Positions 1,706 to 19,475 of a stretch of 23,177 nt of DNA are shown here, one piece after another. The notes beneath the pieces were generated by a model. That model had not been told where the DNA came from and did not search any database. It saw only the letters and a list, made by a program, of their open reading frames with translations. The translations under genes were made by a program, and so were the position numbers. The first letter of the stretch is position 1; the number at the start of each line of letters is the position of its first letter. Source of the stretch: an uncultured Bdellovibrio sp. (GTDB taxonomy: Bacteria > Bdellovibrionota > Bdellovibrionia > Bdellovibrionales > Bdellovibrionaceae); assembly GCA_963932905.1 (NCBI GenBank), contig CAWVRN010000042.1, positions 1 to 23,177 of the forward strand, given 5' to 3'.

Positions 1706-4700
1706 TTAAGCCACCTTGCCTTGGATACTGTCTGCTTTTTTTAAGCGTATTATAAAACGAGTATTGGCACAAGTCTCATCATAATAGAGCTGTCCACCAT
1801 GCCGCTCTATGATTCCTCGAGAAATACTGAGTCCTAGACCCGTACCTTTACCAATGTCCTTCGTCGTAAAAAACGGCTGAAATAATTTTTCGCGGGACTT
1901 GGCATCTATTCCAGCACCGCTATCAGTCAGGGAAAAAATCACTACGCCTTCATCGTGACCTATAGCTTCGATTCGAATCCATGAATTTTTTTGTTCATGA
2001 ATGGCGTCAAAAGAATTATTAAGCAAATTCAAGATAACTTGTGAAATTTCTGTGGGGCGACCCAGTATACTGAGTTGTGGGTCGATATGTCCACATTCAA
2101 TGATTACGTTTGATTTACGGAAGCGTTCCTGGCACAACGCTAACGTTTGATCTAAAATTTCGTGAACGTTGACGGAAACCATAGGATCGGAAGATCCATC
2201 TCGAGAAAACTGCCGCAACCCAGTTATAATTTTAGCAATATGATCAACAGTTTTCGTAATAGACTGAGAAACCTTCAATATCATCTCAGCATCAAGTTTT
2301 TTTGCCTCAAGACGCATCTCGAGTCTTTCCGCATGCAATCGAATCGTGGTTAGGGGCGTGTTGATTTCATGAGCGATACCACCAGCCATCAATCCAAGAG
2401 CCGACATTTTACTGGAATGGGCCAGCTGAGCTTGAGTCTCGCGTAAAGTGACTAAACTTTGATTTAATTCCTGAGTTCTGAGTTGAACTCGTCCTTCCAG
2501 GTCATGGTACAAGGACGCATTCTCAAGAGAAACCGCAGCCTGCGACGCCAGAATTTTTAAAACCTGAACGCGATCAGGACTAAACGCGCCCGAACTCAAG
2601 TTATTTTCCAAGTATAAATAACCGGCAATCCGTCCATGATTAAGGATCGGCATACATAAGATGGACTTATTTTTATTTTTCTCGATGTAGGGGTCGGATT
2701 TATAACGTGAATCTGTTAGTGCCTGATCTAATACAACGGGTTCTTGGGTTCTAAGAGCTTCACGGAAAACACTTTGAGCCATCTTATCATAGGCCGTAGC
2801 CTCAATATTTACAAGATTCATACCTGATCCTTCGGAGTGGGCACGAACAAAAACTTGCCCGTCATTCGACAAAATCAGACATGCCGTCTGAGCCCCGGCA
2901 TTTTCCTGTGCAATTTGTAATAGTTTTATAAGAAGTTTCTCCTGGATGATTTCCCCAGAGATCGCTTGCGATGCTTTAATGATAGCCCCAACATCAAGCA
3001 TAGCAGAGGTCATATAACTAGTGCTCTGCTGCGTAGAACCAAAAGATTTTTGTGTATGGGACGACGTTCTTGTTTGTAAATCTGGGAACTCTTGCTGAAG
3101 TAAAGCCATTTTCTTTTTACACGCAAAATTTTCGTACAAGGCATAGGCATCTGCTAAATAAACATAAGCTATTTTTTCATGTCCCCAAACCAACCACGTT
3201 CGACCAGCTCTTTCTGCACAAAGGGCGGCAAAAAAGATAAGACCAGATTCTTTAGCTTGCCCGATAGCTAAGTCATAATATTTTAGTACGGTTTCCATTC
3301 CGTCTTTACTTTCCAAGTAACTCAACTCAGCCGAAAGTAAATTTTCGATCCAAGCAAAATTCATAGGAGCACTTTTACTCAAGTCTATTAGAATGGCCCT
3401 GTGTTTATTAAATTCGGCCATCAATTTCACCTTCTCTGATTCATCGGCATCGCGACAATACGCAGCGTGAGCCATTGCCGAAAAAAATCTATAAGTCACT
3501 TGATCTAGTATCATGGATTCAATGGCAGTGAAATTGCTTTCAAGGGCGACTTTTGAAGCGTCTGCGAATTTTCCGTAGTGGAATAATCTGCCAATCAAAA
3601 GCAAGCTTGAAAAGGTATTAAATAAAGGTGCTGATTTAAATGTGTCGCGATAGTGAGTATCATTAAAGTGGTTATAATCAATTGAATCTAGACTCGAAGT
3701 AAGACCTAAAAAATTCATCGCTTCACCTTTTTGGGAAGCCAGCATTTCTCCCATGGCAAAGTTATTAATTTTTTTCACCCGAGCCAACTGCTTGTCAAAA
3801 CTTTCGACCGCGCTCAAGAGGTTTTTTTTGCTCCACATAAGACTCAGGCGCCCTAAACCAACAGCAGCGTAGGCAGAAAACAATTGATCACCGGAATCAA
3901 CTCCTTCTTTATACGCTCTTTCGTAAAGATCATATACTTCTTGATACGATTTTTTAAGAGGTAAGAACATAGTCGCAAAAACGTAAACTAAAGTACTCGA
4001 TATAGCTTTATTCTTAAATATTTCATCATTTACTCTCAGTGATAAGGCTCCGAGTTCATAGGCGTCGTCATAATTTCGGAAACCTGCGGAAAGAACAATT
4101 GCAATACTTTGGTAACCGATCGGCGAAAAAGATGTGTTTCCCTTGCGAATGGTTTGATTGATCATCGTAACCGCCATGACACCATAATAATGAGAAGCGG
4201 CGATGAAGACACAATCCAACATGCTAGCACAAATCGAAATAACCAAATCATGTTCAACGGAACGGCTTACCGGAAGGTCATAGAGCGCTTGGATTCCCTT
4301 CTCATTTCTAAATTGCAGATAAAACTGATACTCTTTCATAAAGTAACTACCCACGTCTTCAGGTACATGAGTCGCAGGTAGGTGAATCCCTAAAAGTTCC
4401 AAGGCCTTTAATCCTTCGGTAATCGCTTCAGGGTAACGACCTACTGCCGCTAGTTGATTTAAGCGAATCGCATATATTTTGCCAGAATCGACGGGAGACT
4501 GTGAATTATTCAATGCTTTCATCAAAAATTTTTCAGCTTCGTCAACGTGTCCTAGTAATCCGCAACATCGTCCGCCCAATAAATAAAATTCAAAAGATCT
4601 TTCATAAGCGTTATTCCAGTTTTCAGCTTCTGGGAGTGCTAACGCAAAACGGACGAATTCCAGCGCTGCTTGATAGGCCGTTGAGTCTTGAGATTTTTGA

Positions 4701-7000
4701 GCGGCTCGCAAATTCAATGTGACCAGTTTGTCTATTTCAATAGGTTCGGTAATTAATTGATGGGCTTGATTCAAATGGTTGACGGCCTCCAGGAGGTATT
4801 CTTGATTAGCTCCTGTCATGAGCTGATTGAAATGTCGACCGATTCTTAAATGAAATTGTAGTTTTTCATTTTTACTGCTGGAATCATATGCTGCCTGTTG
4901 CACGCGATCGTGCAAAAAACGACAGGTAAAATAAGGGCTGATGGCCTCAAGTTCAGTCTCTGTTGCCTCGCCCTGACTGCACTGCCAAGCCATGCTATAA
5001 TATTTGGTGAACTCATCACCGAATAAAACAACGCCGTTATGAATAGCATCCCAAATTCGTAAAACTGTTTTTGAAAGAGGTGTTCCCTCAAGTTCTGCGA
5101 TAGTTTTCAGGTCAAAACGCGCACCTAAGCACGCTGCGATTTTTAAAATTTCTTGGGAGTCTTGACTTAATTCTTTCAGGCGATGAGTAACCAGATCAAC
5201 AACGTTGTCAGTTACTTCCAAGCTTTTAATTCTACTTATATCCCATTCCCAACAACTGGCCAGAGTATTCACTTGAACGCAGCCATCCTTATGTAGTCGT
5301 CTTATAAACTCGCTGGCGAAAAAAGGATTTCCTCCTGTTTTTGCAATCACAACTTCGGCAAAATCGAGGCAGTCTTCAGGTGATCGATGAAATGTATCCG
5401 CAAGCAACTGCTGCATATCGTTTAGCTGTAATGGCTTTAAACTAATCTTGGACACAGTTTTATTTTTTCCAATTTCATTCATTGCATAGGTAAGTGGGTG
5501 AGACTCTGTGACTTCATTTTCACGATAGGAACCTACAAGAAGAAAATAAGAACTTTCAAGCAACAAACTTTTTATTAAATCCAAGCTGCTCAGATCAGCC
5601 CATTGCAAGTCGTCTAAAAAAATGACTAGGGGATGCTCGGCACTGGCAAATGCGGATACAAATTTCTGGAAGGTACGGTAGAATCGACTTTTTGACTCCA
5701 CCGAACTCATTGGAGGAATAGGCGACTGTGGTCCAATAATGTGTTCCAGTTCAGGTATGACATCCACTATAATTCCAGCGTTTTCGCCTAATGTAGAGAT
5801 TATTTTTTCTTTTATATTTTGGATCTTTGGTTGTGACTCAGAAAGTAAACTTCGTACTAAACTTGTAAAGGCTTGAGTGATTGCACTGTAGGGTATATTA
5901 CTATCATATTGGTTGTATTTACCTGAAATAAAATAGCCTTTTTGCTTCACTATGGGCTTTTGTAACTCATTAACCAAAACAGTTTTTCCGATTCCAGAAT
6001 AGCCAGACACAAGAACCAGCTCGCCGCTGCCTGTTGCAGATTTTTCAAATGCTTTTATAAGTTCAATTTGCTGTTTTTCACGTCCATAAAGTTTTTGAGG
6101 TATGGTTAATACAAGTGGTACATCGTAAGATGCGATTTCAAAATCAGGAATCAGGCCTTTTTCCAAAAAACTCTGACGACATAATTCAAGATCTTTTCTC
6201 AAACCCTGGCCGCTGTGATAGCGATCTTCCGAGTTTTTCGCCATGAGTTTCATAACTATACGAGAAATTACTTCTGGCACTTCATGTGAAACTTCGCTCG
6301 GGAATTTTGGCTGCTTAGCTAAATGACAATAGACAAGCTCCATAGGATCTTCCGAAGTGAAAGGAAGTTTCCCAGTTAACATAAGATAATAAAGAACGCC
6401 TAACGAGTAAAAGTCAGTTCTGTAATCAACTGGGCGATTCATACGACGAGTTAACTCTGGAGAAATATAGGATAAGGTGCCTTCTAGAGCACTCAGATTT
6501 TGAGAGTCTTGGAATTCTACAGCGATTTGAGACGCCGTACCGAAATCAATAAATTTGAGATCACCTTGATTCGACAAGACGACATTTTCAGGTTTAATAT
6601 CTTTATGAATGATTCCGGCTTCATGAATGCGGCTTAAAGCATCTGCTAAAGAAATTGCAATATTCAAAAAGTCTTTTATTTCGACTTTTCCGTAATTTAT
6701 AAATTCTTTTAGAGAGAAACTTTCGTGGGTCACCGGCATAATAAGAACCCAGGAATCTAAATGACGTTTTAATTCAGCATTCTGGGGTACGCAGGTAAGA
6801 TGATTTATCGTTTTAAGAATAGTGTACTCATTTTGAATCCGCGCGATGCTCGAAATACTTGATGGTGAAATCTTTTGAAGTTTTAGATAGGCGGTTTTCG
6901 TTTCGTGAGTTCCTAGAAAAACAATTGAGTTGTCAGTTTCTAATACCGTCTTTTGTATAGAGTAGCCTGCGATTTGATGAGTCCTTTTTGAATTTGACAC
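1706..7000 (-). CDS. Hybrid Ser/Thr kinase - P-loop NTPase - helical repeats - GAF - histidine kinase (HstK-like trifunctional kinase)
   Basis: HKDIKPEN, IDFG, YISPE (Hanks kinase). GYSGIGKT Walker A, LVIFLDDLQWAD Walker B. GAF (DPYI..KSILCMPI..YLYLENN). H-box IAHEINTPL, N-box NLLNNSFDA, DSGAGI, FQPFFTTK, GTGLGL. GTG start. Confidence 0.93.
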   Translation of the reverse strand: MSNSKRTHQIAGYSIQKTVLETDNSIVFLGTHETKTAYLKLQKISPSSISSIARIQNEYTILKTINHLTCVPQNAELKRHLDSWVLIMPVTHESFSLKEFINYGKVEIKDFLNIAISLADALSRIHEAGIIHKDIKPENVVLSNQGDLKFIDFGTASQIAVEFQDSQNLSALEGTLSYISPELTRRMNRPVDYRTDFYSLGVLYYLMLTGKLPFTSEDPMELVYCHLAKQPKFPSEVSHEVPEVISRIVMKLMAKNSEDRYHSGQGLRKDLELCRQSFLEKGLIPDFEIASYDVPLVLTIPQKLYGREKQQIELIKAFEKSATGSGELVLVSGYSGIGKTVLVNELQKPIVKQKGYFISGKYNQYDSNIPYSAITQAFTSLVRSLLSESQPKIQNIKEKIISTLGENAGIIVDVIPELEHIIGPQSPIPPMSSVESKSRFYRTFQKFVSAFASAEHPLVIFLDDLQWADLSSLDLIKSLLLESSYFLLVGSYRENEVTESHPLTYAMNEIGKNKTVSKISLKPLQLNDMQQLLADTFHRSPEDCLDFAEVVIAKTGGNPFFASEFIRRLHKDGCVQVNTLASCWEWDISRIKSLEVTDNVVDLVTHRLKELSQDSQEILKIAACLGARFDLKTIAELEGTPLSKTVLRIWDAIHNGVVLFGDEFTKYYSMAWQCSQGEATETELEAISPYFTCRFLHDRVQQAAYDSSSKNEKLQFHLRIGRHFNQLMTGANQEYLLEAVNHLNQAHQLITEPIEIDKLVTLNLRAAQKSQDSTAYQAALEFVRFALALPEAENWNNAYERSFEFYLLGGRCCGLLGHVDEAEKFLMKALNNSQSPVDSGKIYAIRLNQLAAVGRYPEAITEGLKALELLGIHLPATHVPEDVGSYFMKEYQFYLQFRNEKGIQALYDLPVSRSVEHDLVISICASMLDCVFIAASHYYGVMAVTMINQTIRKGNTSFSPIGYQSIAIVLSAGFRNYDDAYELGALSLRVNDEIFKNKAISSTLVYVFATMFLPLKKSYQEVYDLYERAYKEGVDSGDQLFSAYAAVGLGRLSLMWSKKNLLSAVESFDKQLARVKKINNFAMGEMLASQKGEAMNFLGLTSSLDSIDYNHFNDTHYRDTFKSAPLFNTFSSLLLIGRLFHYGKFADASKVALESNFTAIESMILDQVTYRFFSAMAHAAYCRDADESEKVKLMAEFNKHRAILIDLSKSAPMNFAWIENLLSAELSYLESKDGMETVLKYYDLAIGQAKESGLIFFAALCAERAGRTWLVWGHEKIAYVYLADAYALYENFACKKKMALLQQEFPDLQTRTSSHTQKSFGSTQQSTSYMTSAMLDVGAIIKASQAISGEIIQEKLLIKLLQIAQENAGAQTACLILSNDGQVFVRAHSEGSGMNLVNIEATAYDKMAQSVFREALRTQEPVVLDQALTDSRYKSDPYIEKNKNKSILCMPILNHGRIAGYLYLENNLSSGAFSPDRVQVLKILASQAAVSLENASLYHDLEGRVQLRTQELNQSLVTLRETQAQLAHSSKMSALGLMAGGIAHEINTPLTTIRLHAERLEMRLEAKKLDAEMILKVSQSITKTVDHIAKIITGLRQFSRDGSSDPMVSVNVHEILDQTLALCQERFRKSNVIIECGHIDPQLSILGRPTEISQVILNLLNNSFDAIHEQKNSWIRIEAIGHDEGVVIFSLTDSGAGIDAKSREKLFQPFFTTKDIGKGTGLGLSISRGIIERHGGQLYYDETCANTRFIIRLKKADSIQGKVA

Positions 7001-7249: not shown

Positions 7250-7639
7250 TTATGGGTTCGCTAAGTCATCTAAAATTGGACAGTTTGGTCTGTCGTCGCC
7301 ATGGCAACATTTTGCTAGATGCTTCAACGTCTTAACTATCGCTTGGAGGACTACAATTTTTTGCTCCATTTCACTAATATGATTAAGAGCTAGATTTTTA
7401 ACCTCGACGCTTGCTCTTGTTTTGTTGCGCCATAGACTCACGAGCTTTTTGATTTCTTTCATAGAAAAGCCAAGGCTTCGCGATTTTTTTACAAATACCA
7501 GGATATTTACATCGGCTTCTGAATAGGTTCTGTAGCCCGCCATCGATCTGCTGGCTTTTGGGATAATTCCAATGGACTCATAGTGACGGATCAGTTTTGC
7601 ATTCACACCCGATATTGTTGCTGCCTCGCCGATATTCAT
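7250..7639 (-). CDS. cueR: Cu(I)-responsive MerR-family regulator CueR
   Basis: MNIGEAA..GVNAKLIRHYE..GYRTY MerR HTH. C-terminal metal loop CCHGDDRPNCPIL. Divergent from a Cu-ATPase with CueR boxes between them. Confidence 0.95.
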   Translation of the reverse strand: MNIGEAATISGVNAKLIRHYESIGIIPKASRSMAGYRTYSEADVNILVFVKKSRSLGFSMKEIKKLVSLWRNKTRASVEVKNLALNHISEMEQKIVVLQAIVKTLKHLAKCCHGDDRPNCPILDDLANP

Positions 7640-7773: not shown

Positions 7774-7804
7774 TTGACCTTCCAACCACTGGAAGGTGCA
7801 TGCT
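7774..7804 (+). promoter_or_regulatory. CueR box within a 19-bp-spacer promoter of copA
   Basis: ACCTTCC-N7-GGAAGGT at 7777-7797. TTGACC (7774-7779)-N19-CATGCT (7799-7804). Confidence 0.88.
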
Positions 7805-7859
7805 GTACACAAAGAGGAAAACAGACTCTAGCCTTGAAGGGCATTTGACTGGAGAATAT

Positions 7860-10274
7860 ATGGATCATTCGAAGCACAACCACAATAAACATCAGGGGCA
7901 TAGTCATCAACATGACCATTCCCATAGTGAAGGCCACTCGTGTAGCTCAATTGCACCAAAGAAGGAATCCGATCTTGTTAAAGATCCAGTTTGTGGAATG
8001 ATGATTGACCCTAAAACGGCTAAAGGTGGTAATACGAATTACAAAGGAGAAACTTTTTATTTCTGTAATCCAAAATGCAAGACTAAGTTTGATACAGAAC
8101 CTTTGAAATATTTAAATCCTCAAGTTGAACAAAATCAGAGAAATGATAAAGAAGTTATCTACACTTGTCCCATGCATCCAGAGATCCGACAAACGGGAGC
8201 CGGCAATTGTCCGATATGTGGTATGGCGCTTGAACCTGAAGACGTGTCTATAGAAGATGTTGAAAATCCGGAGCTTGCGGATTTCACAAAGCGCTTGAGA
8301 GTCAGTGTCCCATTAACGATCCCGTTATTGCTATTGGCGATGTCCGATTTAATTCCGGGACAACCAGTACAACATGCAATCCCTAGTTGGATTAATGCAG
8401 GAATTCAATTTTTGCTTGCAACCCCAGTGGTTCTTTGGGCAGGCTTTCCATTTTTTGAACGGGGATGGCGTTCAGTTAAGTCTCGAAACTTCAATATGTT
8501 CACGCTCATCGCTCTTGGAACTAGCGTAGCCTATCTATTCAGTTTAGTAGGAACATTCTTTCCGTCACTCTTTCCTAAGAGTGTCACGATGCACGGTGGA
8601 ATGGTTCCGTTGTATTACGAAGCAGCCGCCGTTATTACAACCCTTGTTCTGTTGGGACAGATTCTTGAGCTTCGAGCCAGAAGCCAAACTGGAAATTCCA
8701 TAAAAGCGCTTTTAGGACTTGCGCCGAAGACGGCAAGGAAAGTTCTCGCTGACGGAACGGAAGAAGATATTTCTATCAAGTACATTCACGTTGGCGATTT
8801 GTTAAGAGTTCGACCTGGTGAGAAAATTCCTGTCGATGGTGAAGTGACTGATGGCCGCAGTTCAGTGGATGAATCAATGATTACAGGTGAACCAATTCCT
8901 GTAGAAAAAGACAACGGGGATTTAGTTACGGGAGGAACCGTCAATAGCACGGGAAGTCTAGTTATGAAGGCAACAAAAGTAGGTTCTGATACTTTGTTGT
9001 CGCAGATCGTAAAAATGGTATCTCAAGCGCAAAGAAGTCGTGCACCGATCCAGAAACTTGCGGACACCGTTTCGGGTTATTTTGTTCCAGCTGTTATTGC
9101 TATCGCTCTTGTAACCGCCATCGTTTGGTATTTTATCGGGCCGGAACCACGATTGCCCCATGCAATTATAAATGCAGTCGCAGTGCTTATTATCGCTTGT
9201 CCTTGTGCTCTTGGTCTTGCGACTCCGATGTCCATTATGGTCGGCACAGGTAAAGGGGCGAATGTCGGTGTGTTAATTAAAAATGCAGAAGCCCTTGAAG
9301 GTCTTGAGCGGATCACCACTTTGGTTGTTGATAAAACAGGGACTCTTACTTTAGGGAAGCCCAAACTTGCGGTCGTGAAAACCCTGAACGGTTTTACGGA
9401 ATGGGATGCTATGAGCCTGGTGGCTTCTCTTGAAAAATCCAGTGAGCATCCTCTGGCAGAGGCCATTGTTCAAGGCGCAATTGATAGAAATATAAAAATT
9501 GAATCTGTCGCCGAATTTGAATCCATAACTGGTATGGGTGTAAAAGGGCAAGTTCAAAAACGAAATGTCTTAGTAGGAAACAAAAAACTTTTTGAAAAAT
9601 TTGGTGTTGATTCGAGCGAACTTTCTCAAATTGCAAAAGATCTTCAAAGCACTGGGCACGGCACTATGCTTGTCGCTATTGACGGAAAACCAGCTGCTGT
9701 CATCGCCGTGAAAGACCCGATCAAAGAATCAGCTAAACCAGCTGTTAAGTACTTTCACTCTAAAGGTATTAAGGTTGTCATGGTAACTGGCGACAATCGT
9801 AATACAGCTGAAATTGTGGCAAGGGAAATGGGAATCGATAGGGTCGAAGCAGAGGTTCTTCCTCAGCGAAAAAATGAAATTATTCAAGAGCTGAAGTCTG
9901 AAGGACAAATTGTTGCCATGGCAGGAGATGGGATAAACGATGCACCTGCGCTGGCTCAAGCCGATATTGGAATTGCAATGGGCACTGGTACAGATGTCGC
10001 TATGGAAAGTGCAGGAGTTACTTTGGTCAAGGGTGATCTTATGGGAATTGTTCGTGCTCATAAACTGAGCCAGGCCACAATGAAAAATATAAGGCAGAAC
10101 TTGTTATTCGCTTTTGGGTACAATGTCCTTGGGGTACCGATTGCAGCAGGGGTACTCTATCCAGTTTTTGGGCTGCTACTGAGTCCAATGATTGCCAGTC
10201 TAGCAATGAGTTTAAGTTCTGTGTCGGTGGTAGCCAATGCCTTAAGGCTTAGGCAGAGTAAAATGGACGGGTAG
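7860..10274 (+). CDS. copA: Cu(I)/Ag(I)-exporting P1B-type ATPase with His-rich leader, YHS and heavy-metal-binding domains
   Basis: DPVCGM..FYFC..C (YHS), [53 protein letters not shown] and MSLSS. Start moved from 7800 to 7860 because SD GGAGA lies at 7851-7855 and the 7800 ATG overlaps the -10. Confidence 0.95.
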
Positions 10275-10315: not shown

Positions 10316-11902
10316 TTATGCAGATCGTTTTAATCCCCAAACCTGAGCCAGCTTAGTGGCAACTTCATCTAAGGGGACTTGCCACTGACTGGCTCCTGAT
10401 TCCCACGCCGATTTCGGCATTCCATATACAACGCAGGTCTCTTCGTCCTGAGTAAAGGTGAGTGAGCCTTTTTCTTTCATCTTAAGCATGCCACTTGTTC
10501 CATCGGAACCCATACCTGTTAAGATTACTCCAATCGCATTTTTTCCAATCGCTTCTGCTACCGATTGAAAGAGATAGTCAACCGAAGGTTTGTGACGGGT
10601 CATGGGAGGATCGTCGTTCACCTCTACAAATAGTCCCGAAGGTTTCTTTATAATTTTCATTTGCTGCCCACCAGGTGCAATGAGTACGCGATTCGAATGT
10701 AGGGCATCGCCCGACTCAGCTTCTTTTACTTCAAAGGGGCAGAGAGAGTTCATTCTGTCTGCGAAAGCTCTAGAAAAAACGGGTGGAATATGCTGAACGA
10801 TAACGATCGGTGGGATATTTTTTGGCAATGCAGTCAGAACTTCTTTGAGTGCCTCAGTGCCTCCCGTGGAAGAGCCAATTGCGATAACAACATTGGGATC
10901 AAAGGACTGATTCAAAATTCCAGAGGGAACAAACTTCTTTATTTGTTTAGGTATTCTAACTCTTGCAGAGGCGGCATTAATTACTTTCTCTCGAATAAGG
11001 GGGGCAGCTGAACTGATATCAGATAGCGATGGTTTTTGAATGTAATCGACAGCTCCTAGTTCCATCGCTTCAAACACCTCATTGCCATCTTTTAATTCCA
11101 AAGATGTAATCATGACAACCGGCAGTTTGTATTTTGGAACCAGTGTCTTTAACCACTGGACACCAGTCATTCTAGGCATATGCACATCAAGAGTAATGAC
11201 ATCCGGCTTAGTCGTTGGCAGTAATAACTCGGCCTTAAGTGGATCTTCGGCTTGACCTACGACTTCTATATTGGAGTCTTGACCCAAAACTTTGGTTAAC
11301 AGGTCACGAATAGTTTTCGAGTCATCTACAATTAAAACGCGCAGTTTTCGTGTCGATTTAGTCGTGCCGGAATTAGAGAAAGAAGTCATCTTCTTATTTG
11401 GTAGGCTAATTGCTTTTGCCGCTGATGGCCTAGAGAAGCCCGGCCCAACAAGTGCGACTTGTAAACGTCCGGTTTGGACGTGAAATAGAATTTTACGGCC
11501 CCGGGTTCCCCCTACATCTTCACCAACAATAGGGATCTTGTGCTTGGAAAGCATTTTCTTGGCCATTTTTACGTTTTCAGCGCCGACATGTTGAGACGGG
11601 TGTTCTGATGCTATATTGTTGGCACCCCCAACAAGTTTTGCTTTGAGTTGATGGCTTTTTACGTCCAGGTGATGGCAAACTTCTAAAATCAATTGTTCTA
11701 TGGCATAGTCGCCATAGCGCAATGGATTGTCGATTGAATTAATTGGAAGTTCAGGAAGCGCGTAATGAATGACCCCACCACCGTTTACTACTTCAGAGAA
11801 AAGACATACTGAAACGCATGAGCCTAGAACTGTACTTACCACGACGGATTCTTTGGATACGACAAGTTCAGCAATATTTAGACTAACGATTTCTTGGCTC
11901 AT
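10316..11902 (-). CDS. cheB: CheD-receiver-CheB fusion (deamidase + response-regulated methylesterase)
   Basis: N-terminal CheD motifs TVLGSCVSVC, IHYALP, AKLVGGA, EDVGGTRGRKI. REC motifs VLIVDDS..ITLDVHMP..KP. Methylesterase triad GSSTGG, VQHIP, LTGMGSDG. ATGA overlap with the cheR stop. Confidence 0.93.
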   Translation of the reverse strand: MSQEIVSLNIAELVVSKESVVVSTVLGSCVSVCLFSEVVNGGGVIHYALPELPINSIDNPLRYGDYAIEQLILEVCHHLDVKSHQLKAKLVGGANNIASEHPSQHVGAENVKMAKKMLSKHKIPIVGEDVGGTRGRKILFHVQTGRLQVALVGPGFSRPSAAKAISLPNKKMTSFSNSGTTKSTRKLRVLIVDDSKTIRDLLTKVLGQDSNIEVVGQAEDPLKAELLLPTTKPDVITLDVHMPRMTGVQWLKTLVPKYKLPVVMITSLELKDGNEVFEAMELGAVDYIQKPSLSDISSAAPLIREKVINAASARVRIPKQIKKFVPSGILNQSFDPNVVIAIGSSTGGTEALKEVLTALPKNIPPIVIVQHIPPVFSRAFADRMNSLCPFEVKEAESGDALHSNRVLIAPGGQQMKIIKKPSGLFVEVNDDPPMTRHKPSVDYLFQSVAEAIGKNAIGVILTGMGSDGTSGMLKMKEKGSLTFTQDEETCVVYGMPKSAWESGASQWQVPLDEVATKLAQVWGLKRSA

Positions 11903-12735
11903 TTTGAGATTTTCCTAAACACCGCGGGTTGAATCGGTCCAAATAAATGCTGTGTTCCTGGAATCGACTCTGAATGTCCGATGAAAAGATGCCCTGGCTG
12001 TTTAAGTGATAAATGCAATTTTTCCATCAGTTTATTTATCGTCTGTCTTTCAAAATAAATAAGGACATTTCGACAAAAAATCAAATCAAAGACTTCGTCA
12101 CCAGGATATGTACTTTCAACTAGGTTATGTGGCTTAAACAAGATTTTTGAGTGGATTTCGTCTGATACTTTGAACCAACCATTCGCCCTGTTTGTTCCTT
12201 TGACTAGGTATGGTTGGTATTCTTCGGGTATCTCGTGAATTTTTGAAATCGGGTAGACTCCGTTTTGAGCTTTTTTTAAGACCTGCGTGTCTATATCTGT
12301 TGCAAGTATTTTAAAAGAGATGTTTTTAGGAAGGTGATTAAGCAATACCATGGCGATAGTATAGGGTTCTTCACCTGTCGAAGAGGCCGAGCACCAAATT
12401 TTGATTTCTGTTTTTCCTTCTTTTTTCCATTGAGGAATGAGGTTGTAAATCAGAAAATCAAAGTGTTTGGGTTCGCGGAAAAAATCAGTTTTATTTGTGG
12501 TTAGCAAGTTAACGAATTGTTGGGTAACCGTCGGGTTGGAATTCATAAGTTCAACTTTTAACTCATCAAGTGAATTAAAAGTTGATTTCCGTAAAAAGGA
12601 TTGAACTCGGGAGCGAACTAACTCCCTTTTTTTTTCAGTTAGATGAATCCCAGCTAACTGGAAGATTTTCTCTTTCAAAAAGAGAAAATCTTCATCCGTA
12701 AATACTTCGACGGTCATAGAATCAATTTTGTTCAC
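11899..12735 (-). CDS. cheR: Chemotaxis methyltransferase CheR
   Basis: TTNKTDFFREPKHF, IWCSASSTGEEPYTIAM, ATDID, FDLIFCRNVLIYF, LFIGHSES. GTG start overlaps the MCP stop (TAGTG). Confidence 0.95.
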   Translation of the reverse strand: MNKIDSMTVEVFTDEDFLFLKEKIFQLAGIHLTEKKRELVRSRVQSFLRKSTFNSLDELKVELMNSNPTVTQQFVNLLTTNKTDFFREPKHFDFLIYNLIPQWKKEGKTEIKIWCSASSTGEEPYTIAMVLLNHLPKNISFKILATDIDTQVLKKAQNGVYPISKIHEIPEEYQPYLVKGTNRANGWFKVSDEIHSKILFKPHNLVESTYPGDEVFDLIFCRNVLIYFERQTINKLMEKLHLSLKQPGHLFIGHSESIPGTQHLFGPIQPAVFRKISK

Positions 12736-14498
12736 TATACGTCTTTAAAGCCATCATCGTCACGATCGGGTGTTGATGAATCATCCCCAGATACTTTTTG
12801 AAGTGACTTTGATTCAAAGCTATTAGATTTTTTAGTCTTCGCTTGAGCCGATTTTATATGCACGATATTTGACTTAGGCATTTTGGTGACTGTCGGAGTC
12901 GGTCGTGGGACAGTAACAGAAGCACTAGAGTTTCGATTTCCAGTAATCACCGCCATAAGATCTTCAACTGAGGCCTTAAGGGATTCGGCTTGGCCAGAAA
13001 GTTCTTCTGCGGCGCTGGCGGCTTCTTCACTTGTTGCCGCATTCTGCTGAGTTACTGTGTCCAGCTGTGACATGGCCTTGTTAATTTCTGAAACGCCAAG
13101 GGCTTGCTCTTTGGATGCCTGAGAAATTTCTTGCGATAGACCAGACACTCTTGAAACATTTTGAACGATTTCATTTAGTACGTCGGAACATTGTTTTGCT
13201 ACGGTTACGCCAGACTCAACTTTTGCTTTGCCAGATTGAACCAAACCTTCAACTTTCTGTTGAGTATCTCTGACAATACCTTCAACTTTGGAAATGCTTG
13301 CATCTAGCATGTCGGTGATTTCCTTAGCAGCGTTTCCTGACATTTGAGCCAGATTTCCTACCTCTTCAGCAACCACTGCGAAACCTTTGCCGTGCTCGCC
13401 AGCTCGGGCGGCTTCAACAGAAGCATTGAAGGATAGTAGTTTGGTTTGAAATACGATTTCGTTAATAACTTTAGTTCTATTGCCAATGTCTTGAATGACT
13501 TTTACTATATCAGACATTTGACGGTTACTTTCGTTGATCTGAGTCAAGATAGCCTCGTTACTTTGGCTTATTTCATCCATAGAAGTGAGCATTTGATCCA
13601 CTGACTCACGTCCTTCTTCTGCTTTTTTGTGAGATTCTGATGAAGTTTCAGATGTATTTTGCGCATTTTCGGTCGCTTTGGAAATCATAGAGGTAATTTC
13701 TTCTAGCGAAGCCGCCGTTTCTTCCAGCGAAGCGGCTTGTTCTGTGCTTGCTTCCGAAAGTTGCTGAGACGAGGACGCTATCTGCGAGCTAGCTGCTGCA
13801 ACTTGGTCTGCGTTCGAAGCTAATTGTTGAGCAACCGCTGTGATGGAGCTTGCTACTTTGGTCGAGAAAATAAAACCTACCATTAGACCTAAAAGTATTC
13901 CTGCTATTGATGTAAAAATAACGAGTTGATTTGTACTCTGCCCAGTTGCTTCCGCGTCTTTAATGTCACGATCGGCCTCTTCGCGATGGAATTTTTCTAA
14001 TTCTTCAATGGCCTCTGTATAGTGTTTTGCGGCTTCCATACAGTCATGCAGGAAAATCTGATTAAGCTGTTCTCTAGCGGACGATGATCCGTCGTCATAA
14101 AGAGCCAAAGCTTTCACTCCTATCTCTTTGAAATGCGACCATGCCTTGTTTACATTTTCGTATTTTTCTTTTTGTCCGGGCAAAAATGGAATTTCCCGAT
14201 ACTCCTTATCTGCGGCTTCATAAGCAGCAATCGAATCTTTTGTGTGTTGAACGTAATATTTAGATTGCTCTTGTGAAAGTCCCGCTAGTCCAAGTAACCT
14301 AAGATTAATTCGAATGGCCCTATAGGTCAGAAACATATCATGTGCTGCGTTTAAACTTGGCATTGAACCATGGGTGACCTTGTCATAAGTAGTTTCCACT
14401 GAGTGTAAACCCCGGTAAGAAATGGATCCTATAACTATACTGACCGATGCCATGAAGGCGCATAGACCTAACAATTTTGCTTTGAAGCTAACGTTCAT
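12735..14498 (-). CDS. Methyl-accepting chemotaxis protein, 2 TM with ~160-aa periplasmic four-helix-bundle-like sensor
   Basis: Two hydrophobic segments. Methylation helices [15 protein letters not shown] and QQNAATSEE. Hairpin tip [38 protein letters not shown]. Confidence 0.95.
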
Positions 14499-14552
14499 AT
14501 AGAGTCTCCTTAAATTTTTTCGACGTGAGTCGAATTTATTTTCTACCGTAAA

Positions 14553-15398
14553 TTACTTGTCGTCTTCTTCGCCAGAGGCAGCACTTCTGCTCTTTTTCCC
14601 GCGAGACGCAGCCTTAGAGTCATTGAAAATTACGACCGGTTGTCCAAGGCTCCAAAACTCTACTTCGCCAGAAGCCAAATGGTATATACCTTGCGCTAAA
14701 AGAAGGTGATTAAGTTCAAGTGCTTCACGAACAATTTTTGATTTCTTGATAAGTTCTTTAACCGTGGCCGTAACATTGGCCTTAACGGGGCCTTCAAGGG
14801 TCTTGTCATCAGGTGAAATATTTTTAAATGCCGAGATTCCCGGCTTGATTTTGGCAATTAAACTATCAAGGCTGGGTGACCCTGCCGATTTTCCATCTGG
14901 AGTTGTCAAAGCAGCCTTAACCGCTCCGCAGGAATCATGGCCCATTACGACGAGTGCCTTGGCTCCTAAGTGTTCTATTGCATACTCGATACTGGCGATC
15001 GCTTCCGCATTTAAAACATGGCCAGCAAGCCGCACTGTAAATACTTGCCCAAGTCCCTGATCAAATACCTTTTCGGGAGGAACTCTAGAATCAGAGCAAG
15101 AAAGAACAATGACAGGAGGCTGTTGACCCGAGGCTAGTTTTTCTCGTGTTGATTTGTCTTGGTTAGAATTATTTAAGCGTCCTTCAACATATCGTCGGTT
15201 ACCGGCCTGGATTTCTTGGATGGCGGCCCAGCCATCTTTTGAAGATGAGGTTTTTTGATCAGTAGTTCCATGAACTTCCGTTTGCTGTTTAGCAGTCTTT
15301 GTTTCGTGTTTGCTGACTTCAGTTTTTCCCAATGCTCCAAAACTTAAAATCGAGGCGATAAAAAAACCTAAGAAGTTATTTTTTAAATTTGAGTTCAT
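14553..15398 (-). CDS. Beta-class carbonic anhydrase with predicted signal peptide
   Basis: Zn ligands and dyad CSDSRV, GHDSCGAV, plus GNRRY and SIEYAIEHL. ATG at 15398 follows SD GAGGAG (ORF track start 15410). N-terminus MNSNLKNNFLGFFIASILSFGALG looks like a Sec signal. Confidence 0.92.
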   Translation of the reverse strand: MNSNLKNNFLGFFIASILSFGALGKTEVSKHETKTAKQQTEVHGTTDQKTSSSKDGWAAIQEIQAGNRRYVEGRLNNSNQDKSTREKLASGQQPPVIVLSCSDSRVPPEKVFDQGLGQVFTVRLAGHVLNAEAIASIEYAIEHLGAKALVVMGHDSCGAVKAALTTPDGKSAGSPSLDSLIAKIKPGISAFKNISPDDKTLEGPVKANVTATVKELIKKSKIVREALELNHLLLAQGIYHLASGEVEFWSLGQPVVIFNDSKAASRGKKSRSAASGEEDDK

Positions 15399-15406
15399 TT
15401 TTCTCC

Positions 15407-15895
15407 TCACGCGGCCTTCGTTATTTGTGATTTCATGGTTTTCAGGTCATCAGTGTTCAATACTTTTTTTAAATCTATTAAAAGTGTAAGATCTTTTTCA
15501 TGCCTAGCTACCCCAAAAATATAGTCAGCTTTTGTGGAGGAGTCGTGGACTGGGGGTTCGCTGATCATGGAATTTTCAAAACTGGTTACCGAGTTGACGG
15601 AGTCAACGATGACTCCGAGTGATAAGCCATTCAAATCAAGAATGACGATTGTTGTTTCAGGTGTCGTTTCAATTTTTCCAACTTTGAGTTTGATGCGAAG
15701 GTCGATAACGGAAATAACTTGTCCACGTAGATTCATAATGCCCTTAAAGTAAGGGGCTGCTTGCGGAATATTAGTTGTTTCGGTATTGGCGATGACCTCT
15801 TTGACTTGCAACAAAGGCATAGCAAATTTTTCATTTCCTAAAGAGAAACACAGAAACCGACCTGCTGATTCTTGATATTTTTTTTCCTCGTTCAT
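15407..15895 (-). CDS. cheW: Chemotaxis coupling protein CheW
   Basis: FLCFSLGNEKFAMPLLQVKEVI, IPQAAPYFKGIMNLRGQVISVIDL, GVIVDSV. SD GGAG. Confidence 0.95.
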   Translation of the reverse strand: MNEEKKYQESAGRFLCFSLGNEKFAMPLLQVKEVIANTETTNIPQAAPYFKGIMNLRGQVISVIDLRIKLKVGKIETTPETTIVILDLNGLSLGVIVDSVNSVTSFENSMISEPPVHDSSTKADYIFGVARHEKDLTLLIDLKKVLNTDDLKTMKSQITKAA

Positions 15896-15979
15896 TTCTT
15901 AATGCTCCATCGACATTAAAGCCGTACTTAGGTTCAAAATCATGAAAAAGTCCTAATTTTATTTTCTACTCTTACAGAT

Positions 15980-16008
15980 GTTTCGGACCAAAGAACTAAA
16001 ATATTAAG
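15980..16008 (-). promoter_or_regulatory. Putative sigma28(FliA)-like promoter of the che operon
   Basis: Minus strand CTTAA-N16-TCCGAAAC, equivalent to TAAT-N15-TCCGAAAC versus the consensus TAAA-N15-GCCGATAA. Confidence 0.55.
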
Positions 16009-16138
16009 TAAATCTATAGTGAAGATTTCTAAATCTCCGAAACAATCTCAAAATGAGTCATCTAGCCGTAGGTCTGTGATTCCTATTAGGTCCCTATAAC
16101 ACCTTCAATCTCTTCAGAATTCAGCCTATAGTATCTTT

Positions 16139-18140: not shown

Positions 18141-19475
18141 CTACGCAGATTTCTTCATACTCAAAAGAAGCTTTATTTTTGATCTTATTTCATTGCTTGC
18201 TTGCGCTAGGTTTTCAAGCGATGGTTTTTCAATATAGTCACTAGCGCCTTGAGAAAGTGCTTTCTGAGCAATAGATGGATCGTCACGATTTACAGATGAT
18301 AAAATGACGATAGGTGCGGAGCGATCTTTGTATTCTTTTAAAAATCCAACTCCGTCAAGCTCAGGCATGTGCATGTCTAAAGTAATGGCGTCAAATTTTC
18401 TAGTTTTCAAAATTTCAATGGCTTCACGGCCGTTATTGGCTTTTGCCGTAATCTTAAAACCTTGATCTGGAATTAGTATTTTTCCTAAAAGTGTGTGAAT
18501 AACAGGAGAATCGTCGATGCACAGAACTTCGATTGGTCTTTCAGGCGCAGGTTTCGGAGTCGGCCTAGAACCATTTACTGTGACGAGTTTTTCCGGCGTC
18601 GGTTTTATGTGGGCTTTTTTATGTTGGTAAACTGAAGGTCCTACGGGTTCGATATTAAGAGAGAGCCCATTTAAAGTTTCAGAAACGCCAAGGACCAAGA
18701 AACCATCTGAATCAAGGTGTTTCATAAAATCTTTAGTGATTTTTTGAATTTGTTCTTGATTAAAATAGATAAAAACATTTCTACAGAAAATTAAGTCGAA
18801 TGTTTTGTTTTTTAAAAAAGTTTCTGAATTTAAAAGATTAACTGTTTCAAAATGACAACTATTTAACAAATGATCTTTGGCCTTTGAAAAATTTTGGACA
18901 TTACCGGTTCCTCTGATCCAGTTGCCTTCAAGATACATAGCCGGAGACTGCCTTAGTTCGTCCGTTTTATAAACTCCATTTTTTGCGGACTTAACTGATG
19001 CCGAGTCCACATCAGTTCCCCAAATTTCAAATTTTACGTCTGGGGCCATGTGCATTAGATGAAATCTAAAAAACATAGCAAGTGAATAGACTTCTTGTCC
19101 TTTGCTACAGGCGGCGGACCAAACTCTAATAGTTTTATCTTTGCGTTGCTTAGCTCGCTCTATAAAACGTGAAAGACCTTTGTTTAGCAAAAATTCGAAA
19201 TGGTTGAATTCTCTGAAAAAGAAAGTGTGGTGAGTGGTAAGCAGCGATAGTAGTGCTTGGCTTTCGACTTCAAGGTGTGAGTTCAAATAATTCAAGTAGT
19301 CGCTAAATGAGTCTATTTTCAACTTTAACATTCGCGAACGTAGGCGGCTTTCAACCATTGGTCGTTGTTTTTCCCCAAGCTGAATTCCGGCTATGTTAGA
19401 TACGACGTCCGCGACCTGGTCAATGACGGAGTCAATTGTGCTTTTTGGTTCATCTCGTTTTATTAAATGGCTCAT
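18141..19475 (-). CDS. cheR: CheR methyltransferase fused to a C-terminal CheB-type receiver domain
   Basis: TTHHTFFFREFNHF, VWSAACSKGQEVYSLAM, GTDVD, FDLIFCRNVFIYF, LGVSE. Pro-rich linker, then REC VLCIDDS..ITLDMHMPELDG..GASDYIEKPS. Confidence 0.9.
   Translation of the reverse strand: MSHLIKRDEPKSTIDSVIDQVADVVSNIAGIQLGEKQRPMVESRLRSRMLKLKIDSFSDYLNYLNSHLEVESQALLSLLTTHHTFFFREFNHFEFLLNKGLSRFIERAKQRKDKTIRVWSAACSKGQEVYSLAMFFRFHLMHMAPDVKFEIWGTDVDSASVKSAKNGVYKTDELRQSPAMYLEGNWIRGTGNVQNFSKAKDHLLNSCHFETVNLLNSETFLKNKTFDLIFCRNVFIYFNQEQIQKITKDFMKHLDSDGFLVLGVSETLNGLSLNIEPVGPSVYQHKKAHIKPTPEKLVTVNGSRPTPKPAPERPIEVLCIDDSPVIHTLLGKILIPDQGFKITAKANNGREAIEILKTRKFDAITLDMHMPELDGVGFLKEYKDRSAPIVILSSVNRDDPSIAQKALSQGASDYIEKPSLENLAQASNEIRSKIKLLLSMKKSA

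Follow-up and report, generated by a model that had tools for sequence, protein, structure and literature searches.

The window analysed here is a stretch of 23,177 nucleotides (nt), positions 1 to 23,177 of the forward strand of contig CAWVRN010000042.1, from an uncultured Bdellovibrio sp. (assembly GCA_963932905.1). It contains a chemotaxis operon in which a gene for a beta-class carbonic anhydrase (CA) lies between cheW and the gene of a methyl-accepting chemotaxis protein (MCP). The CA is likely exported. From comparative sequence evidence we propose, with moderate confidence, that it is an enzymatic front end which equilibrates CO2, HCO3- and H+ in the periplasm for the receptor. On this view the window would have in two separate genes, for CA and MCP, what elsewhere is encoded as one protein. 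An earlier note on this DNA had proposed that the CA is functionally tied to the chemoreceptor. This is supported by the recurring adjacency of related CAs to cheW or MCP genes and by many proteins in which an exported CA is fused to an MCP.

The carbonic anhydrase, its operon and the receptor

The open reading frame (ORF) map and the Pfam and NCBIfam matches bore out the gene order given in the earlier note, i.e. cheW, beta-CA, MCP, cheR and cheD/cheB. The CheW, MCP, CheR, CheB and CheD genes are all on one strand. The features, listed 5' to 3' along this strand, are:

15896-16138, minus strand: intergenic region 5' of cheW, between it and a divergently oriented gene for an OmpR-type response regulator; the operon promoter presumably lies here (ORF map)
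15407-15895, minus strand: cheW, 162 residues; PF01584 E 3e-32
14553-15398, minus strand: CA, 281 residues from ATG; PF00484 E 6.8e-37
15327-15398, minus strand: CA residues 1-24, an N-terminus resembling a signal peptide; cleavage likely after ALG
15228-15326, minus strand: polar linker, CA residues 25-57 (about 33 residues); the alignment to a solved beta-CA begins at residue 58
14556-14651, minus strand: CA residues 250-281, a charged C-terminal tail (from alignment and translation)
14499-14552, minus strand: CA-MCP spacer of 54 nt, holding a 6-bp hairpin (14519-14534) and the Shine-Dalgarno sequence of the MCP
12735-14498, minus strand: MCP, 587 residues; PF12729 (4HB_MCP_1) E 3e-10, PF00015 (MCPsignal) E 6.5e-40
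11899-12735, minus strand: cheR methyltransferase, 278 residues; PF01739 E 5.5e-57, PF03705
10316-11902, minus strand: cheD-receiver-cheB fusion, 528 residues; PF03975, PF00072, PF01339; NF001965 383.9 bits

The junctions were as previously described. The CA Shine-Dalgarno sequence GAGGAG overlaps the cheW stop codon TGA (15407-15409) and lies 5 nt 5' of the CA ATG (15398); an alternative start, a GTG at 15410, would give 285 residues. The distance from the CA stop codon (14553-14555) to the MCP ATG (14498) is indeed 54 nt, and the MCP has its own AAGGAG. A simple consensus scan of the minus strand called neither a terminator-like nor a promoter-like site at the cheW-CA-MCP junctions and no consensus sigma-70 site in 15896-16138. 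The spacer hairpin folds no better than shuffled sequence (z 0.59), therefore no function is claimed for it; its stems are conserved in G003:C96 (here and below, genomes of a family survey are denoted by G and their contigs by C, and G000 is the genome of the window). Two public RNA runs contained only 0.07 of the sampled words.

The CA scored 127.6 bits with PF00484 (cut-off 25.7) and covered positions 2-156 of the 156 in this profile. The best NCBIfam model was NF011765/PRK15219 with 128.7 bits, which is under the subfamily cut-off of 221. The nearest solved chains were 2a5v/1ym3 (E 8.6e-31, residues 58-244). The zinc and catalytic residues that the earlier note had reported as kept (C-x-D-x-R, H-x-x-C) are C101-x-D103-x-R105 and H154-x-x-C157; they were invariant in two alignments and align to those of 2a5v. 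Judging from the intact zinc ligands and the Asp-Arg dyad, the CA is predicted to be catalytically competent. By inspection, its N-terminus consists of MNSNLKNN with one Lys, a 16-residue hydrophobic run ending in ALG, and then KTEV. The run was not called as a membrane helix with a 19-residue hydrophobicity window and a threshold of 1.5. All nine translated relatives linked to cheW or an MCP gene start in a similar way, with a hydrophobic run up to an AxA-like site, and this helps the reading of the CA N-terminus, otherwise made by inspection, as a likely Sec signal peptide. Export, as read in the earlier note from a signal peptide and a polar linker of about 30 residues, is likely. At the other end, the C-terminal tails are longer and rich in Lys and Glu in the CA relatives from G003, G025 and G205.

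The MCP consists of a first transmembrane segment (TM1, residues 9-27), a periplasmic four-helix-bundle sensor (about residues 28-191, window 13926-14417), a second segment (TM2, residues 192-210) and the signalling domain. Its orthologues are 72-82% identical. The MCP and its relatives have a conserved acidic C-terminal tail, ...DDDGFKDV (window 12735-12770, and orthologues), and the MCPs of G025 and of the Silvanigrellaceae-type loci described below end in ...SGF or ...DGF. The receptors of E. coli carry a C-terminal pentapeptide; by analogy, the acidic tail may serve to tether CheR or CheB.

Fusion proteins and linked genes in other bacteria

The closest parallel to the proposed pairing came from a metagenome locus, L215, which encodes one protein of 1013 residues with Pro_CA, 4HB_MCP_1 and MCPsignal. 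It begins with a signal-like start and Pro_CA (residues 94-243); after two membrane segments come 4HB_MCP_1 (351-527), one more membrane segment and MCPsignal (755-911). With two membrane passes between them, the CA and the sensor share one side of the membrane, which homology with Tar-type receptors suggests is the periplasm. A search with the CA part of L215 among proteins of 557-1773 residues gave 179 matches, of which 120 were listed. According to precomputed annotation at least 82 of these 120 combine PF00484 and PF00015 in one protein; by blastp, both parts were present in 84 of the 121 matches listed, query included. The order in 74 of the 84 fusions is one or more CAs, a transmembrane hairpin, a sensor of at least 120 residues, a further transmembrane segment and the signalling domain. 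In six others the CA lies between TM1 and TM2, and four were unclassified at the threshold used. In the predicted topology both layouts put the CA on the periplasmic side. One CA copy is present in 69 fusions, two in 14 and three in a single one, and CxDxR...HxxC was kept in 99 of 100 fused CA domains. Among the matches listed the named sources include Opitutae, Phycisphaerales, Planctomycetes, Zixibacteria, Hydrogenedentes, Spirochaetota and Marinimicrobia; some of the proteins are automatically named 'methyl-accepting chemotaxis protein/carbonic anhydrase' in the database. The same matches included CA-Porin_O_P barrel fusions, each with two CA domains (P0007, P0016), and a CA-SulP fusion (P0119).

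The fusions and the window share two modules, a likely exported beta-CA that has its zinc ligands intact and a transmembrane MCP whose sensor is often of the 4HB type. In the window, a CA that is likely exported and retains its catalytic residues stands beside a periplasmic helical sensor, as in the fusions. In contrast to the fusions, the CA and MCP are separate ORFs in the window, divided by the CA stop codon and the spacer; they are two genes within a cheW...cheB operon, without a membrane tether, and the CA is on another tree branch than the fused CAs.

Gene linkage was surveyed in the family, in which 91 of 182 genomes matched the CA at E <= 1e-40. The 30 best-scoring places were inspected and 63 lower-scoring ones were not. 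Among these 30, cheW lies directly 5' of the CA in G000, G003:C63, G025:C14 and G205:C2, i.e. a pairing of CA and chemotaxis genes was seen in only four of the 182 genomes. The nearest CA relatives in the three other genomes, which belong to two genera, thus also stand behind cheW and beside an MCP gene. The order in G003:C63 is cheW-CA-Porin_5-4HB MCP, the CA being 64-71% identical. G025:C14 and G205:C2, from the second genus, have 4HB MCP-cheW-CA, alongside divergent cheR, REC-cheA, Hpt-cheW and cheD-cheB genes and a convergent Alginate_exp-type barrel. The outer-membrane barrel genes that adjoin CAs are Porin_5 at L033 8786-10573 (G003:C63) and the Alginate_exp-type gene at L034 8352-10019 (G025:C14).

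Beyond the family we examined the best 80 genome-contig loci and the best 80 metagenome loci, omitting one that was identical to the window. A same-strand cheW or MCP gene is directly 5' of the CA in six of the genome-contig loci. L087 repeats the G003 cluster, whereas L089, L090, L091, L092 and L105 have MCP-CA-MepA(M74)-DUF1853 where the contig allows. Among the metagenome loci, L168 has MCP-CA, L213 and L241 have cheW followed by the CA, and L215 is the fusion described above. In the six loci of the Silvanigrellaceae/Oligoflexia type (L089-L092, L105 and L168) the same-strand MCP gene directly precedes a CA of 51-59% identity, with gaps of 30-39 nt where measured. The membrane segments of these MCPs are about 38 residues apart; therefore they have almost no periplasmic sensor domain. 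The clusters with MepA (peptidase M74) and DUF1853 occupy L089 4333-8722, L091 284-4682 and L090 277-3237. In the distant L213 and L241 a signal-bearing CA, 36% identical, is located about 15-30 nt 3' of cheW. When all 189 distinct CA rows were considered, 13, the window included, had a same-strand cheW or MCP gene within 1.5 kb; 142 had no such neighbour, 33 had too little upstream sequence and one had an MCP gene on the opposite strand. In CA neighbourhoods, of which the earlier note had suggested a survey, adjacency to cheW or MCP thus recurs in several CA lineages.

Trees were calculated from 189 CA domains with FastTree and from 116 rows, with 23 fused CA domains added, as a quick tree with IQ-TREE. 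In the FastTree tree a clade of 79 rows (support 100) represents the ordinary exported CA of Bdellovibrionota and includes the other copy of the window's genome; no row of this 'housekeeping' clade has a same-strand cheW or MCP neighbour. The window CA groups with that of G003 (support 97) and G025 with G205 (100); these four join with one unlinked row (94). The six MCP-CA rows form a clade of their own (99), and L213, L241 and L215 stand apart among other phyla. The IQ-TREE tree agrees; in it a branch with support 94 separates the 23 fused domains from the window. Forcing the 36 linked or fused rows into one clade lowered the log-likelihood by 100 (approximately unbiased test, p 0.019), but the test group was chosen with the first tree already at hand, and the tree backbone is weak. 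By these comparisons the linked and fused CAs are likely not one clade, indicating several origins or many losses; given the post hoc group and the weak backbone this is not proven branch by branch. Linkage that recurs in varied orders, fusions that set an apparently active enzyme beside the sensor, tandem CAs on some receptors and an unlinked housekeeping clade together argue that the CA has been selected to work with chemoreceptors.

Proposed mechanism and alternative explanations

Uncatalysed hydration of CO2 is slow. In the proposed mechanism CO2 would cross the membranes freely, its hydration would be slow without a catalyst, and a periplasmic CA would equilibrate CO2, HCO3- and H+ fast enough for the temporal comparison made by a swimming cell. 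The periplasmic domain of the receptor would read bicarbonate or a local proton signal. CheW would link the receptor with a CheA whose gene lies elsewhere in the genome, and adaptation of the receptor would be the task of CheR and CheD-CheB. CheA homologues of the window's genome are on contigs C34 and C18; in G006 a cheA adjoins the orthologous cluster, and it matches the gene on C34 at 72%. A broader proposal is more tentative, and we give it somewhat less than an even chance: periplasmic CA may be a general front end of chemoreceptors for true CO2/bicarbonate taxis, fused in many phyla and split in Bdellovibrionota. If so, a predator of the Bdellovibrionota could track respiring prey or oxic-anoxic interfaces. 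A role of the CA-receptor pair in providing a prey cue is speculation.

Several points weigh against a dedicated CA-receptor pair. We infer export, enzyme activity and co-transcription, and likewise the sensed species and the motility output. Neither cheA nor cheY was detected by Pfam in the operon or the window. Sensor-domain profiles built from 76 fusions (46 short, 30 long) did not match the window's MCP in a search of all ORFs of the genome, and comparison of the MCP sensor with solved structures gave 0 matches at E <= 0.01. With relatives absent from both comparisons, nothing ties this sensor to bicarbonate or pH. A complex prediction with the MCP sensor (28-192) and the mature CA (55-281), run without controls, scored 0.00 and counts neither for nor against the pairing. 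Further, the genome encodes a second exported CA (C4:53183-54100, 43% identical, with a lipoprotein-like start); therefore it would have periplasmic CA activity independent of the operon copy. A third, distant beta-CA is also present.

A further objection comes from orthologous operons in the same genus. Four of them, G003:C96, G006:C12, G009:C57 and G001:C96, do not have a CA between cheW and MCP (cheW 70-88%, MCP 53-82% identical to those of the window). The earlier note had named such operons beforehand as evidence against its proposal, and the CA is not a constant part of this operon. This indicates that the CA copy is dispensable and that the MCP lineage works without an adjacent CA. The cheW orthologues of G003:C96, G006:C12 and G009:C57 are 84-88% identical; for G003:C96 the figures are 88% for cheW, 82% for MCP, 81% for cheR and 85% for cheDB. 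G006:C12 also has the divergent regulator pair and the CheR-receiver gene of the window. In G001:C96 cheW-MCP is kept (70% and 53% identical) and no cheR match was found.

The spacer between cheW and MCP is a few tens of nucleotides in G006, G009 and G001. In G003:C96 it has 187 nt and contains a 49-codon ORF with a signal-like start (L078 8677-8826, minus strand), which begins 11 nt 3' of the cheW stop codon. Compared with CA residues 157-183, 12 of 27 residues are identical (BLASTP E 0.002, single comparison), and this CA-like segment includes an exact 12-nt DNA match. On this modest evidence from sequence the ORF is a probable decayed CA; alternatively, it may be a genuine small exported peptide. 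If it is a decayed CA, the operon ancestor of G000 and G003 had a CA between cheW and MCP, which was lost in G003. Such a remnant counts against the proposed pairing as well, since it means that the CA gene is easily lost. The idea that the CA is an insertion specific to G000 was revised in view of the G003:C96 ORF, its signal-like start and CA-like segment, and the same spacer hairpin. A separate copy of the G003:C63 cluster was not found in G000: the MCP of G003:C63 matched the window MCP best (51%), and the G003:C63 porin as a query found no homologue in the window's genome. A third near-copy of cheW, 90% identical and followed by an MCP gene, is located at L079 1052-3470 (G003:C116). This MCP has a signalling part 83% identical to that of the window and a Tll0287-like sensor domain in which a CxxCH motif occurs; its gene appears split into two overlapping ORFs (1586-1870, 1833-3470), pointing to a frameshift or an assembly error.

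Could the CA simply be a passenger, i.e. an additional ordinary periplasmic enzyme for pH or inorganic-carbon homeostasis with no role in signalling? The operons without CA and the probable decayed copy in G003:C96 would fit, as would a second exported CA in the genome and in most relatives; moreover, exported beta-CAs are already known (PMC5746736). We nevertheless consider this unlikely, as it does not accommodate recurrence beside cheW or MCP in several separate CA lineages, MCP fusion in 82 of the 120 long homologues listed, and a housekeeping clade devoid of such a link. It is distinctly improbable, in our view, that the CA conditions the surroundings of the receptor array, buffering periplasmic pH or bicarbonate or feeding a modification of the sensor, while an unrelated ligand is sensed. 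Tandem CAs on one receptor (two or three copies in 15 of 84 fusions) suggest that enzyme flux itself matters, and evidence for a sensor modification was not found in the analysis. Such conditioning would, however, agree with MCP orthologues that function without an adjacent CA and with the diversity of CA-linked or fused sensors, which are 4HB, HBM-like or CHASE3-like or, in the Silvanigrellaceae type with its loop of about 38 residues, almost absent.

Outer-membrane barrels next to CAs bring up inorganic-carbon uptake by a channel and a periplasmic CA, in which the link to chemotaxis would co-regulate uptake with motility. Porin_5 between CA and MCP in G003:C63, the Alginate_exp-type barrel beside the CA in G025 and G205, and the CA-Porin_O_P and CA-SulP fusions are compatible with it. 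Yet the operon of the window has no porin or transporter gene, the search with the G003 porin failed to find a homologue in the genome, and receptor fusions are far commoner than porin fusions (82 versus 2 among the 120 matches listed). We regard uptake as very unlikely. An enzymatic front end for the receptor thus remains our preferred explanation.

In a literature search, with supplements and subscription journals outside it, we found no description of a chemotaxis operon containing a CA gene or of a CA-MCP fusion, and no chemoreceptor described as working through a carbonic anhydrase. An excerpt of PMC7691447 mentions CA in another context. Exported beta-CAs as such are not new: according to passages of a review, signal peptides are predicted on some Gram-negative beta-CAs and a periplasmic location has been proposed (PMC5746736). 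These enzymes and the solved 2a5v/1ym3 share with the window CA the beta-class fold and zinc site and, in some cases, the predicted signal peptide; they differ in that none is described in a chemotaxis operon, and the window CA is under the PRK15219 cut-off. The window adds the split form in a cheW...cheB operon of Bdellovibrionota, the recurrent cheW-CA pair, and evidence for gain and loss of the CA within a genus.

Known chemosensory systems have parts of the proposed design. CAs are needed by CO2-sensing olfactory and taste cells and in fungal signalling by bicarbonate-activated adenylyl cyclase. There, too, CO2, which is hard to bind, is enzymatically converted to bicarbonate and protons that serve a downstream sensor; the proteins and pathways are unrelated, and the likeness is one of analogy only. 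In the indirect chemoreception of E. coli the maltose-binding protein docks on Tar and ribose- and galactose-binding proteins dock on Trg. Input is thus provided by a separately encoded soluble periplasmic protein, as proposed for the window. Whereas these accessories are docking, ligand-binding proteins, the accessory in the window is an enzyme, which would produce the ligand or bring it to equilibrium. Helicobacter pylori also has a periplasmic CA. Its chemoreceptor TlpA, of the dCache type, is reported to respond to arginine, bicarbonate and acid (PMC8406319, abstract). Bicarbonate and acid are thus among the named signals of a bacterial chemoreceptor; TlpA differs from the MCP in having a dCache instead of a 4HB sensor, and the abstract of that paper names no part for a carbonic anhydrase.

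The case for CO2 sensing by swimming bacteria through a CA is comparative and consists of recurrent operon linkage, several dozen fusions with a consistent periplasmic topology and conserved catalytic residues. The split form lends itself to testing, since the enzyme can be provided independently of the receptor. If true, the proposal would add an enzyme-coupled class of input to chemotaxis, paralleling CA-dependent CO2 sensing in animals and fungi.

Other genes in the window

The operon is flanked by the divergent OmpR-type regulator gene with a PAS histidine kinase gene and by a gene for a CheR-receiver fusion. Two fused adaptation enzymes are unusual: the CheD-receiver-CheB protein (10316-11902, minus strand, 528 residues) and the CheR-receiver protein (18141-19475, minus strand, 444 residues). 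Congeners retain both fusions, and G025 has the CheD-CheB one as well. A protein of 1764 residues (1706-7000, minus strand) has a Ser/Thr protein kinase domain, AAA_16, GAF, HisKA and HATPase_c; downstream of it a single-domain response regulator is encoded at 1296-1682. A MerR-family regulator gene (7250-7639, minus strand) is divergent from a P-type ATPase gene (7800-10274, plus strand), whose product has YHS and HMBD metal-binding domains. The two are a copper/heavy-metal efflux pair, which is convergent on the end of the che operon.

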